Shown here: piece after piece, positions 5,420 to 14,056 of the stretch
How positions within the stretch are numbered: position 1 is the stretch's first letter
Layout of the letters: the number at the start of each line of letters is the position of its first letter
IMG/VR virus record: IMGVR_UViG_3300032030_000005
Coordinates: 192,001-256,000 of that record
Origin: a virus
Lineage: Duplodnaviria > Caudoviricetes
Length of the DNA stretch: 64,000 bases
Reading direction: 5' to 3' (one strand)
Notes under the pieces: model-generated
What the model was told of the DNA's origin: nothing
The model's input: only the letters and a program-made list of their open reading frames with translations
The model's database searches: none
Translations under genes and position numbers: made by a program

Positions 5420-6583
5420 ATGGCAAAATTTAGTGAACTCAAGGAAGCAGTAGTTAATGTAGCACTTAGCGGAGGTGTTCCATTCATCAGAGGTTTACAT
5501 GGAATAGGTAAATCAGAGATGATGGAAGGCATCGCTGAAGAAATTGGAAATCGTTTAAATAAAGACGTAGTGTTTCACATTATCGATGCAGCTCACCTTA
5601 AGGAAGGTGAGATTACCGGTATGCCAATCACTACGGTGGACAAGGTGACCGGTCAGAAGATAAACGATTATACACTGTACCATGTCTTCAATGAGATAAT
5701 GAAAGAGTCTCAGGAAGGACAGATTTCTGTATTAGCTGTTGATGAAGTTAACAGAACTGAATTAACAGTTTTTAATGAACTCATGCCAATCATTTTGGCA
5801 AAGAGAGTTCAGGAAACACAGCTTCCTGATTCTCTTTATATTATTGCGGCTGGTAATCCAGAAGACATTACTCAGTATAAGGGTGCTACTGAAGACTATA
5901 ATGTAAGACCGATGGACCCGGCCTTAAAAGATAGGTTTTTTATCTTTGATCTTGAGGTTGACAGCATGGAGTGGCTGAAGTGGGCAACCACTTCAAAGAG
6001 AGTTGATATGGACGTAGTAGAGTATATTTCTGAATATTCTAATATGCTTCACTTCCTTAGTAATAAGGAAGTAAACCCGACACCTAGAGGTTGGGTGTTA
6101 TTCTCAGATGCTTATAGAACTATAAAGAAGTATGTTAAGGATCCAGATGAACTTGAAAATACTGTCATCCTTGTAGGTGGTGGTAAGATCGGTACGGATG
6201 CGGCAACTAATTTCGTGAGATTCCTCAGAGAATCAAAGAATCCATTGCTTAAAGTAAAAGATTTCTTTGATGCTAGCGTCTCAGAGAAAAAATTCTCTGA
6301 AAATCTTGAAAAACTTAAGAAAGAGAAGGCTACAAGACAGTATGTAACTGTCACAAACGTTCTCGAATATTTCTTAGGCACATATGAGGGTAAGACAACC
6401 CTCAAGAAAAATGAGAAGGCGGATCTCCTTAAGCGTTTCACTGAAATACTTTGGGTTCTTCCTAAAGACATCATGCTCGGCACAATTAAAGAAATTAAGG
6501 AGAGAAACAGAACTGCCTTAACAGAAGTCGTTGCAGTTGATCCTAAGAAAATAATAGAAATTCAGCAGTACATCTCAGGCTAA
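5420..6583 (+). CDS. MoxR-like AAA+ ATPase
   Basis: Walker A GLHGIGKS, Walker B LAVDEVNR, AAGNP, MDPALKDRF, PTPRGW. Confidence 0.9.
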   Translation: MAKFSELKEAVVNVALSGGVPFIRGLHGIGKSEMMEGIAEEIGNRLNKDVVFHIIDAAHLKEGEITGMPITTVDKVTGQKINDYTLYHVFNEIMKESQEGQISVLAVDEVNRTELTVFNELMPIILAKRVQETQLPDSLYIIAAGNPEDITQYKGATEDYNVRPMDPALKDRFFIFDLEVDSMEWLKWATTSKRVDMDVVEYISEYSNMLHFLSNKEVNPTPRGWVLFSDAYRTIKKYVKDPDELENTVILVGGGKIGTDAATNFVRFLRESKNPLLKVKDFFDASVSEKKFSENLEKLKKEKATRQYVTVTNVLEYFLGTYEGKTTLKKNEKADLLKRFTEILWVLPKDIMLGTIKEIKERNRTALTEVVAVDPKKIIEIQQYISG

Positions 6584-6672
6584 TCTGAATAATCGATTAT
6601 TTATTTGACTTAAGAAGGGAAAGTTTTATACTTCCCTTCTTTTTTTATCTATTAAAGAAAGGAATTTAAATT

Positions 6673-8124
6673 ATGACTAAAAAAGAAGAAAAAACCATAT
6701 CATTAAAAAAATTAATTGACTATGTGGATTATTATACACCAGAATTCATGCCATCATTAATATTTTCTAAACATTTTGGTAGAGATAATTCATTAACTGC
6801 TCCAGATATGAATATCGATGTTTTTTATAATAGAGTTAAAACAAATATCGATAAATTTAATAACCTCCCTATATCATTGGAAAATTATAAATTAGTAAAA
6901 GGAAAAGATATTTATTTAAAAGAAAATATAGGTAATATACTTACAATAGATGATAAAGAAATGTATGTTTTAAAATTATTCATGTTTATGAGCTGTTTCT
7001 ATGATCCAACAGAAAATATATTAGAACGAATATATAGTCCTAACTTAGATGAGCTATCACCTATTTATTGGAGTGGATTACAATATAAGTCAAGACAACT
7101 CTATTCTATAGATGATAATTTTATTGATACTTTCTTTAAAACATTAAAAGAAAATGATTCAAAAAAGTTAATAAAAACTAAAAAAGCATTTTTCGTATAT
7201 TCTTTAATGCAAACACTTATAAATGAAACCACCAGTAGTTATCTAATGGATTGTGCTAATATTATTTATAATGCTATAAAAGATGAAAAAAATGAAGAAT
7301 TCAGTATATATACTGAATTAAGAGAATATTTATTAAATAATAGAAACTTATTAGATATGGAATTATTAAAAAAATATATAGATGAAACATATGATAGTCT
7401 ACTTAGATGTAGAAATTATAGATCACTAAATGTACTATATACTGTTTATGCTAATGGTAATAATATTTTAGAAAAAAATTATTTGAGGAGTTTAATATTA
7501 GTATCTGAAAATACATATGTATCTTTAACTCTTAAAGATGTATCAATACCACAGTTGGTATCAGATATTCATAAAGACTACACTGAATGTAATATAACTA
7601 TGTCAGAAGTAGAAGAAATTATTAAAACACAATTTGTAAATATGGCAGATGTTATATTAACTAAACATAAAAAAAGTATTTTATCAGATTATAAAAATAT
7701 ATTTAAGGATTTAGTATTATATCTAAAACAGATGGAATATGTTTTTAATATTTATAAAAATGTATTTAAAGTAAAATATAATATTGATGATATAAATAAT
7801 ATAGAAATAAATATAGAAAATATTAAAAAACATTTTATGAAAATATATTTAAATAATAAAGATGATTTATCTGGAATTGTAAATAATCTTTTAAGTTCAA
7901 GTCTTAAAAGAGATTTTTATAAAACAGAAAATATAGTTCAGCCTAGCTTATGGTTTAATTCATCTGATAAAAATTTTAAAAGAATACTTTATTTTGAGTT
8001 AATAATAGATATAAAAAATAAAATAAAAGAATTAATTGATGAAGATAAAGATCCAGTCAAAGAATTAGGAATAACTAAAAATAATATGGCTGAATTGATT
8101 TTAACTTTTGATAATAATAAATAA
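6673..8124 (+). CDS. hypothetical protein, MoxR-locus paralogue 1
   Basis: Long ORF with SD; C-terminus LGITKNNMAELIL. Confidence 0.7.
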   Translation: MTKKEEKTISLKKLIDYVDYYTPEFMPSLIFSKHFGRDNSLTAPDMNIDVFYNRVKTNIDKFNNLPISLENYKLVKGKDIYLKENIGNILTIDDKEMYVLKLFMFMSCFYDPTENILERIYSPNLDELSPIYWSGLQYKSRQLYSIDDNFIDTFFKTLKENDSKKLIKTKKAFFVYSLMQTLINETTSSYLMDCANIIYNAIKDEKNEEFSIYTELREYLLNNRNLLDMELLKKYIDETYDSLLRCRNYRSLNVLYTVYANGNNILEKNYLRSLILVSENTYVSLTLKDVSIPQLVSDIHKDYTECNITMSEVEEIIKTQFVNMADVILTKHKKSILSDYKNIFKDLVLYLKQMEYVFNIYKNVFKVKYNIDDINNIEINIENIKKHFMKIYLNNKDDLSGIVNNLLSSSLKRDFYKTENIVQPSLWFNSSDKNFKRILYFELIIDIKNKIKELIDEDKDPVKELGITKNNMAELILTFDNNK

Positions 8125-12628: not shown

Positions 12629-12682
12629 TGTAAATTCTCTCCTAGGCTTCTAGGAGAGAATTTTTTTAAGAAAGGAATTATT

Positions 12683-14056
12683 ATGGCAAATTCAATTGAA
12701 AAAATCTTAAATAATTTTAAAGTTTATAATGAATATTTTTCTCCATTATATTGTCTGGATAACAGTGAAAGTGATATTCGAATTTTAACAGACTATATAA
12801 AGTCTAATGAATCATCAGCATATACTATGCATAATCCAATAACAATAAATAATGATGAGTATTTTGAATTAATAGATAAAGTTATTGATAGATATCATTA
12901 TTACGCTTCAAATTATATTGAAAAGATAATTAAAAAATATAATAAGATACATTCGAATTTAAATGGTAAAGAAATCTATGCTATGATGTTTGTATTTTTA
13001 TTATTATTAAACAGAGATTATTTTAGAATATATCAAGAAAGATATGATTCAAATACATTAAAAGAATATTTAAATAGTAATAATATAATGAAATTATTAT
13101 CAGAAGTTTCTGAAGCTACTTGTGAGCTATTTAAAGTTGTAACTAATCGGACATTAATAGAACATTTTTATCCTGTAGATGAGACAACATGTTATAGATA
13201 TAATTTTGATATAGACAAAATTAATTGTCCTTTAATGACACAGAGTATATTTGTTAAACCATTTAGAGAAATTTTCTATAGAATGTATAATTATTTATTT
13301 GAATTTAAAAATTTATTTGATGAAGATATTGCGTATAATGTATTTGATCTATTCTTTAATAGTAATTATAAGCATACTAATATAAATAGACAAGGTAATG
13401 TAATTGATTATATGTATTTAATTAAAGAAGATAGTATTGGTATAAAAAAAGAATTTAAGCATGGAAGTATATTTACAGATAGTATTTTCAAGGAATTAAG
13501 TAAGTTGAATCCAATTGATTTAAACATAGAAATTTATGATAAAACGTATCCCCTCCAACAGGAAGATGATACTATTCCAATCGATACCATTAAAGTTATA
13601 TTTGATAAAGTTATTAATGAAATAAATATAGATATGAGAAGAACATTCCACATATTGATAAATGATTTTATATTTAGATTATCTGGTTTTATTTTCTATG
13701 AACCACTGAATAGTTTTAAATATTTTGTAGAAGGTGAAATGTTAGATATATGTTTTTCATGCGATAATTTATTCGATATTATCGTTAATTTAAAGGAATA
13801 TCAAAAGAGAATTTTTGAATTTATTAAAAATGGTAAATTTAAAAAATTAGATAACTATATTAATAGGCTTATAGCAAGAGAACTATATGATCCTAAACAT
13901 TTAACATCTCATATATATAATCCAGGAATATCAACTGAAATGGGGCAATGGATTATAAAAATGTTAAAAAAGGACGTGCATAAAAATCCAGATGGTGCTA
14001 TTAATGATTATAGATTATCTAAAAAAATAGTTAGTGAATTAATAGTTGAAGTTTAA
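12683..14056 (+). CDS. hypothetical protein, MoxR-locus paralogue 4
   Basis: C-terminus YRLSKKIVSELIVEV. Confidence 0.7.
   Translation: MANSIEKILNNFKVYNEYFSPLYCLDNSESDIRILTDYIKSNESSAYTMHNPITINNDEYFELIDKVIDRYHYYASNYIEKIIKKYNKIHSNLNGKEIYAMMFVFLLLLNRDYFRIYQERYDSNTLKEYLNSNNIMKLLSEVSEATCELFKVVTNRTLIEHFYPVDETTCYRYNFDIDKINCPLMTQSIFVKPFREIFYRMYNYLFEFKNLFDEDIAYNVFDLFFNSNYKHTNINRQGNVIDYMYLIKEDSIGIKKEFKHGSIFTDSIFKELSKLNPIDLNIEIYDKTYPLQQEDDTIPIDTIKVIFDKVINEINIDMRRTFHILINDFIFRLSGFIFYEPLNSFKYFVEGEMLDICFSCDNLFDIIVNLKEYQKRIFEFIKNGKFKKLDNYINRLIARELYDPKHLTSHIYNPGISTEMGQWIIKMLKKDVHKNPDGAINDYRLSKKIVSELIVEV

Follow-up and report, generated by a model that had tools for sequence, protein, structure and literature searches.

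A MoxR-class AAA+ ATPase paired with a protein that joins a zincin-type peptidase domain to a VWA domain has been described in jumbo phages by Iyer et al. 2021 (PMC7824862; PHROG 1297 and 1314; AAA_5 and DUF2201_N/DUF2201), who proposed a role in virion assembly. No function or substrate of the phage MoxR/VWA-peptidase pair has been demonstrated. Here, we analyzed a 64-kb window of viral DNA, namely, bases 192001-256000 of the single 305,865-bp contig (27% G+C) of IMG/VR record IMGVR_UViG_3300032030_000005, which encodes both members of this pair, with an identical domain architecture, together with four proteins of 426-483 amino acids (aa), P1 to P4, that share a C-terminal domain. The six open reading frames (ORFs) occupy positions 5420-14056 of the window, on the plus strand, in the order AAA-P1-VWA-P2-P3-P4; this order had been given in an earlier reading of the sequence (hereafter the original prediction), and the coordinates, the AAA_5 and DUF2201 matches, and the tails seen in the translations all agree with it. 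While the pair itself is already known in jumbo phages (PMC7824862), the associated handle-bearing family appears to be new: the earlier description deals with the pair only and contains no multicopy family with a common C-terminal domain, and we found no paper on such a family associated with a MoxR/VWA pair. The locus offers named candidate partners for the pair. Our working hypothesis, to which we give about an even chance of being correct, is that the locus encodes an early three-part module, in which the ATPase/VWA-peptidase machine would engage diverse N-terminal bodies (heads) by way of a common C-terminal handle.

A related logic is found in the vWA-MoxR ternary conflict systems (VMAP and others; Kaur et al. 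2020, PMC7159879), which also combine a MoxR ATPase, a MIDAS-peptide vWA component (MIDAS, metal-ion-dependent adhesion site), and a diversifying third protein. Furthermore, these systems are often linked with a zincin peptidase whose substrates are fast-diverging precursors that end in conserved peptides of the FxSxx-COOH type (PMC7159879). However, they are bacterial systems found mainly in multicellular prokaryotes and interpreted as defense (PMC7159879), and neither their third components nor their precursors are related to P1-P4. The FxSxx, RxD, acidic, and FtsH-associated precursor types are small (PMC7159879), whereas P1-P4, at 426-483 aa and ending in ...N-N-L-x-x-I-L-x-x-h, fit none of them. 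Neither VMAP nor any other described domain was detected in P1-P4 with Pfam, NCBIfam, or PHROG, the presence of a VMAP model in those libraries being unconfirmed. FtsH, an AAA+ protein with an HExxH zinc protease, is a possible working analogy for which we claim no homology; it belongs to the classic AAA clade and is one polypeptide anchored in the membrane, whereas the window pair consists of two soluble proteins that are joined, if at all, via the VWA domain. In Rea1/Midasin, the MIDAS domain of a MoxR-clade AAA+ protein grips Rsa4 and Ytm1 via a shared ubiquitin-like (UBL) domain with a conserved acidic residue. The likeness lies in one small folded domain shared by different clients, but Rea1 is eukaryotic, acts in ribosome assembly, and has no peptidase, and the UBL domain is not helical. 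Poxvirus ankyrin/PRANC (F-box-like) proteins and cellular F-box proteins couple variable target-binding heads to a constant docking domain; the poxvirus type forms multicopy viral families in which this domain sits at the extreme C terminus and plugs into a degradation machine. These proteins dock on the host SCF ubiquitin ligase and not on a virus-encoded ATPase/peptidase, and they show no sequence relationship to P1-P4.

The four proteins are encoded at 6673-8124 (P1, 483 aa), 9963-11351 (P2, 462 aa), 11348-12628 (P3, 426 aa), and 12683-14056 (P4, 457 aa), with the start of P3 overlapping the stop of P2 (ATGA). A hidden Markov model (HMM) of the C-terminal domain (C-domain) places it at residues ~371-478 of P1 (nt ~7783-8106; E 1.1e-21), ~359-462 of P2 (nt ~11037-11348; E 2.1e-25), ~313-425 of P3 (E 3e-17), and ~365-457 of P4 (E 2.7e-18). 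P1 alone carries 5 residues beyond the shared tail, coded by A/T-rich DNA just before the promoter of the VWA gene. None of the four matched a Pfam, PHROG, or NCBIfam family, none gave a tblastn match in 50,697 phage records, and pairwise BLAST among them returned weak tail matches (E 0.1-0.5). We compared the last 40 aa of the 229 likely genes of the genome, i.e., 26,106 pairs. The P2-P1 and P2-P4 tails scored 54, P3-P4 scored 43, and P2-P3 scored 42, all within the top 25-49 pairs, and the pairs ranked above them came almost all from obvious paralog families. Judged by these ranks, the tail likeness among P1-P4 exceeds chance. P2 is the hub of this likeness, since the P1-P3 and P1-P4 pairs were not significant on their own. 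When a lone tail served as the query, an internal segment of a zinc-ribbon protein matched by chance and ranked ahead of the other tails, which shows that the signal comes from the set and its relatives and from no single pair. This zinc-ribbon protein (396 aa, repeated zinc-ribbon units) is encoded outside the window by an ORF at 88278-89468 of the genome, and we rejected it as a carrier of the P1-P4 tail, the match being internal and fortuitous and its own C terminus different. The C-terminal module of that protein is common to several other genes and gives the top tail-tail scores in the genome.

The identical residues of the tails often use different codons (5 of the 8 identical residues in P2 and P4), and conservation therefore acts at the protein level, as had been proposed. 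The original prediction had also limited the likeness of P1-P4 to a tag of their last ~35 aa, an extent that proved too short. Indeed, BLAST joins family members across 70-250 C-terminal residues, and the alignment of the last 110 residues reveals a second conserved helix ~60-70 residues upstream of the tail. The shared part is thus predicted to be a helical C-terminal domain of ~110 aa and not a 35-aa tag. The consensus of 40 distinct tails reads h..hh..hK.(D/E)I..G-[VI]-D-[VI]-x-K-K-Y-G-I-T-x-N-N-L-T-x-I-L, followed by 2-6 residues; in 36 of these tails, an acidic residue occupies the position of the Asp in G-[VI]-D, which lies ~20 residues before the C terminus. The AlphaFold2 (AF2) model of the last 115 aa of P2, built from a 15-sequence alignment, is all-helical (mean confidence, pLDDT, 71) and reaches its best pLDDT (83-89) in the last 30 aa, with helices at 74-92 and 97-101, a turn, and a final helix at 105-113. 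Foldseek returned no match for this model, the best hit of a VIA search (Z 5.3) was within the noise for helical models, and the C-domain profile retrieved chance-level rows only from the PDB sequences. The last 110 aa are basic on average (+5.2), and the bodies are slightly acidic. Two other readings of P1-P4 were examined and rejected: a membrane location (maximum 19-residue hydropathy of 0.91-1.25) and a genome-wide C-terminal label (end-position enrichments of at most 2-fold, with h-x-[DE]-h ends in 5 genes only).

Related loci were obtained through protein searches and contig look-ups; an IMG/VR search with the AAA or VWA protein as a single query gave no relatives. AAA homologs at 46-60% identity led to metagenome contigs with the orders AAA-456-324-VWA (L007, 261 kb), AAA-378-359-443-VWA-387-374 (L008, 155 kb), and AAA-483-531-VWA-419 (L010), in which unnamed genes are given by their length in amino acids; all these genes of 320-530 aa end with the P1-P4 motif. 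A search of 1.84 billion representative proteins with the C-domain profile yielded 31 matches (clusters) at E<=0.001, P1 among the proteins recovered, and all 31 stop 0-6 residues before the C terminus. We looked up the contigs of four hits outside the training set. Three of them, reached via the domain profile alone, have the orders AAA-497-427-VWA (L014), AAA-490-VWA-453-328 (L016), and AAA-334-474-387-VWA (L017), and every unnamed gene in these orders carries the C-domain. The fourth, L015, is uninformative on context because it is a 2.8-kb contig with orthologs of P3 and P4 only. The 306-kb genome of the window holds four copies of the C-domain, all at this locus. Altogether, the family lies inside the AAA/VWA cluster in 7 of 7 informative contexts (the window genome, L007, L008, L010, L014, L016, and L017), where its members, 2-5 in number and variable in position, stand between the AAA and VWA genes or immediately follow them. 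The C-domain family is rare, always C-terminal, and, wherever the context is informative, confined to the AAA/VWA cluster; occurrence of the tail apart from MoxR/VWA loci, which the original prediction had named as evidence against its reading, was not seen in these seven contexts.

The heads diverge far more than the tails. When the last 110 residues were removed, the bodies of 39 distinct members, 210-420 aa long, fell into 26 groups that neither BLAST nor jackhmmer linked. Among 5.8 billion proteins, P2 has one homolog, P0007 (68% identity); the identity reaches 80-86% over the last 100 aa and 55-80% along the body, with 55-65% in the middle. The orthologs on L015 are 83% identical overall for P3 (partial) and 86% for P4, with an identical tail in the latter. 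Since the heads differ from one another and yet are conserved between orthologs (55-92% identity), each head likely has a distinct function. The notion of a constant docking tail on a variable body, put forward in the original prediction, agrees with this diversity, but "tag" understates what is predicted to be a folded domain.

The ATPase (387 aa; 5420-6583) is recognized by Pfam AAA_5 (27.8 bits versus a cut-off of 22) and by phrog_1297 ("ATPase"; E 2.4e-45), and its translation contains a Walker A motif at G25-S32 (GLHGIGKS) and a Walker B motif at V104-E109 (VLAVDE). Twenty-nine homologs were collected at E<=1e-20, and no relative of solved structure was found by sequence. The VWA protein (570 aa; 8185-9897) matches DUF2201_N, which bears the HExxH motif, and DUF2201, both over the cut-off, as well as phrog_1314. 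In a 70-sequence alignment including 69 homologs, the peptidase site H111-E112-x-x-H115 and H120 are invariant or nearly so and the MIDAS is complete, with D433-x-S435-x-S437 and T493 invariant and D520 nearly so; both sites recognized in the original prediction are therefore intact. The AF2 model of the VWA protein has a pLDDT of 82, falling below 50 at residues 221-291. Its C-terminal domain resembles integrin I/VWA domains (Foldseek E 1.6e-5, probability 1.0; VIA Z 13.4, root-mean-square deviation [rmsd] 2.8, 138 aligned), and the MIDAS domain of Rea1 (6qta) is among the structural matches (Z 10.9, rmsd 3.4, 162 aligned). The N-terminal zincin half obtained no structural placement, the VWA domain filling both the Foldseek and the VIA hit lists. 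Based on the catalytic and MIDAS residues, the VWA fold, and the Walker motifs, the ATPase/VWA-peptidase machine looks active. The zincin domain is interrupted by a disordered, acidic insert rich in Ser, Gly, Glu, and Asp (residues ~215-300, nt ~8827-9084; net charge of -18 over 100 residues; AF2 pLDDT of ~40), and comparable inserts are present in the VWA proteins of L014, L017, and Listeria phage LPJP1. The insert may act as a spacer or as a pseudo-substrate of the MIDAS.

By its VWA protein, the window phage is nearest, among cultured phages, to the Bacillus jumbo phages AR9/PBS1, BpSp, and Goe21 and to the S6-like jumbo phages of Staphylococcus, with 32-39% identity across the VWA half of the protein. 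Given these relatives and the exact copies of the AR9 early-promoter consensus in the region, we classify it, on sequence grounds, as an uncultured AR9-like jumbo phage. The AR9-type early promoter, recognized by the virion RNA polymerase, AAATATATATTAT-(6N)-G, is found at 5329-5348 before the AAA gene, where it conforms exactly to the AR9 consensus (PMC5312081), and a motif scan detected a second exact copy, AAATATATATTAT-(6N)-G, at 8123-8142, 62 nt ahead of the VWA gene; both are on the plus strand. The motif recurs 109-130 nt before the AAA gene in L008, L010, L014, and L017 and 61-77 nt before the VWA gene in L007, L008, L010, and L014. This suggests that the AAA and VWA genes are expressed early, in line with the early timing envisaged in the original prediction, and it distinguishes the window pair from the role in virion assembly proposed for the pair in jumbo phages (PMC7824862). 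The stop codon of P1 lies inside the early promoter of the VWA gene (8122-8142).

A similar layout exists in AR9/PBS1 (g028-g036) and BpSp (gp083-gp091), with genes of 226-410 aa that share the extreme C terminus, diverge in their N-terminal parts, and are early and locus-restricted. In AR9, the AAA (g028) and zincin-VWA (g029) genes are followed by g030, g031, g033, g034, g035, and g036, and these six proteins end in ...N-P-K-F-K-x-S-x-K-R-V-K-x-Y-E-A-x-x-I-L-E-x-L. The family shares ~200 C-terminal residues, a full-length alignment being obtained for g034/g035 only, and a search of the 251-kb AR9 genome with the tail profile recovers these six members and no others. The AR9 record annotates early promoters before g028 and g033, and g033-g038 form an early operon (PMC5312081). 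Four genes of this kind are present in BpSp and a single one in LPJP1. The AR9 family thus parallels P1-P4 while differing from them by a longer shared region (~200 aa), another motif, and a 56-aa member consisting of little besides the tail (g033; L001 11118-11288). In free form, this mini-protein could compete for, or regulate, any factor to which the tail binds. In AR9 g036 (L001 13793-14938), residues 3-140 correspond to a full-length SPO1_gp41 domain (PF25749; E 4e-77) fused to the shared C-terminal region. SPO1 gp41 is encoded by an early host-takeover gene, the expression of which cuts the growth of Bacillus subtilis by half or more (PMC6873191). By analogy, the gp41-family head of g036 suggests a host or defense target for the heads; only g036 matches this family, and P1-P4 and the three relatives tested gave no Pfam match at all.

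Comparable sets occur farther afield. Moorella phage MTATph1 (L005) and Thermus phage phiFa (L012) each encode 4-5 paralogs with conserved C-terminal 90-130 residues a few kb from the pair, and an uncultured 462-kb phage has a paralog set with a shared C-terminal region near the pair. In a more distant relative (L009; AAA protein 47% identical), five small genes (140-274 aa; 11270-14467) that follow the AAA gene share another tail (...N-D-x-x-I-x-x-I-I-F-K-F-h-N...), and the contig ends before any VWA gene. The genes after the pair in Staphylococcus phage SA1, with ends that look alike by eye, were not retained, as they are not among the top tail pairs of that locus.

Our hypothesis assigns a role to each component. 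The MoxR-class AAA+ ATPase would be the first part of the module, the zincin-peptidase/VWA protein the second, and the 2-5 copies of the locus-restricted family the third. The common C-terminal domain would be the handle gripped by the ATPase/VWA-peptidase machine, and the heads would be diversified effector or target-binding parts directed at the host soon after infection begins. Completion of the MIDAS site of the VWA domain would fall to the Asp of G-[VI]-D, in the way that the UBL domains of Rsa4 and Ytm1 serve Rea1. The metal of a VWA MIDAS site is normally coordinated in part by an acidic residue that the ligand supplies (Kaur et al. 2020, PMC7159879), and this near-invariant Asp is the obvious candidate. 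The original prediction had pointed to the Glu of an AE/SE motif in the tails; this residue turned out to be phage-specific, with N, K, F, I, L, or T in its place among the relatives, and as a ligand it is not supported by conservation. How the handle would dock and what the Asp would contribute are inferences, as is the direction in which the machine would act. The heads may be clients of the peptidase, to be processed, activated, or turned over, or adaptors delivering host proteins to it, a choice that sequence cannot make. A broader version of the idea, which we regard as unlikely, is a phage principle resembling that of F-box proteins: interchangeable heads, each for a different host protein, would plug via the handle into a phage-made, two-protein ATP-dependent metalloprotease composed of the MoxR ATPase and a VWA-tethered zincin, so that chosen host or defense proteins would be degraded or remodeled within minutes of infection, different phage lineages having invented different handles.

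Several points weigh against the hypothesis of a handle-docking module. The binding of the handle to the pair is a prediction; a complex prediction with the full VWA protein (70-row alignment) and the C-terminal domain of P2 (15-row alignment), from which the AAA protein was left out, scored 0.00 versus a mark of 0.32 and counts neither way. The HMM of the AR9 family did not match P1-P4, and hhalign of the window and AR9 C-domain alignments gave a probability of 0.2, i.e., no profile similarity, so that what the two phages have in common here is position and architecture, an analogy without demonstrated homology. The N4-like Vibrio phage VBP47 and the Escherichia coli jumbo phage SHEFM2K carry the pair with no such array, which implies that the machine does not need the P1-P4 family. 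A strong intrinsic-terminator-like hairpin (14-bp stem and T run) stands between the VWA gene and P2 (9904-9945, plus strand), and between it and P2 we found a ribosome-binding site only and no early promoter motif; P2-P4 may thus be expressed differently from the pair and may depend on read-through or on an unrecognized promoter. Finally, plain tandem duplication would also give co-location in one early region.

This last point leads to an explanation in which P1-P4 are fast-diverging tandem paralogs of one gene with no physical link to the pair, the C-domain being their slowest-evolving structural part, for example, an oligomerization element, and the duplicates having stayed in place to share an early transcription unit. 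The similar lengths (426-483 aa) and tandem arrangement of the genes fit this view, as do the graded divergence in AR9, where alignments span the whole length for g034/g035 but are limited to the C-terminal 200 aa for the remaining members, and the occurrence of the pair without the family in other phages. Tandem duplication does not readily account, however, for members interleaved between AAA and VWA at varying positions in seven loci with none seen elsewhere, nor for at least two lineages, those of the window and of AR9, having families that show no detectable relationship to each other but are each locus-restricted, C-terminally conserved, and attached to the same pair; the paralog sets near the pair in MTATph1 and phiFa add to this difficulty. 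Moreover, SPO1_gp41, the domain that forms the head of AR9 g036, also exists independently, a sign that heads have been swapped and have not merely diverged. On balance, we consider the tandem-paralog explanation unlikely, though the most probable of the rivals.

Two further explanations concern what the conserved end or the pair would do. In the classic helix-turn-helix (HTH) pattern, hydrophobic residues occupy the expected positions, a Gly lies in the turn, and a Ser or Thr starts the last helix, and the stretch [VI]-D-[VI]-x-K-K-Y-G-I-T-x-N-N-L-T-x-I-L fits it. The long helix, 5-residue helix, turn, and final 9-residue helix modeled by AF2 at its highest confidence, together with the basic C-domains on slightly acidic bodies, would suit an HTH that anchors the heads to DNA and would make P1-P4 early DNA-binding regulators or nucleoid-directed effectors. 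Nevertheless, no Pfam HTH family was detected in 15 C-domains (E<=1) or in 10 isolated 50-aa tails (E<=10), the AR9-lineage tail at the same genomic position lacks the turn-like pattern, and DNA binding leaves the strict tie to the AAA/VWA cluster unexplained, all of which makes this reading rather improbable in our opinion. We judge least probable of all that the pair is a virion-assembly chaperone that folds and trims structural proteins, with P1-P4 as assembly or structural clients. Iyer et al. 2021 proposed such a role by comparison with how the Acidianus two-tailed virus builds its tails (PMC7824862), and the SHEFM2K pair adjoins structural genes. Exact early promoters precede both genes of the pair here and in relatives, and those of AR9 stand before g028 and the early operon g033-g038, which argues against assembly; the neighbors of the window cluster are RNA polymerase and endonuclease genes, none of them structural. 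The AAA homolog of Staphylococcus phage DC4 was indeed detected in virion preparations, but the same list also held GroEL and UvsX (PMC10638138), so carry-over is possible.

With its named candidate partners, a precise and mutable handle, and a counterpart in AR9, a tractable phage of Bacillus subtilis, the locus makes the question of the targets of the pair directly testable. If the heads are targeting modules, the locus would represent a new viral way of aiming a self-encoded protease or remodeler at host proteins, and the recurrence of paralog arrays beside the pair in phages and mobile elements would be explained.

With regard to the wider distribution and setting of the locus, the AAA/VWA pair was matched in 193 of the 50,697 phage records. 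In LPJP1 (L004 9089-10648), the zincin-VWA protein is annotated as four short consecutive ORFs, which are either truly split or frameshifted in the record. A bidirectional terminator-like hairpin closes the window cluster at 14062-14089. Immediately beyond it, on the minus strand, a 574-aa ORF (14095-15819) matches homing/HNH endonuclease PHROGs (phrog_559, E 3e-133) and adjoins a piece of an RNA polymerase beta-subunit gene at 16332-17459.

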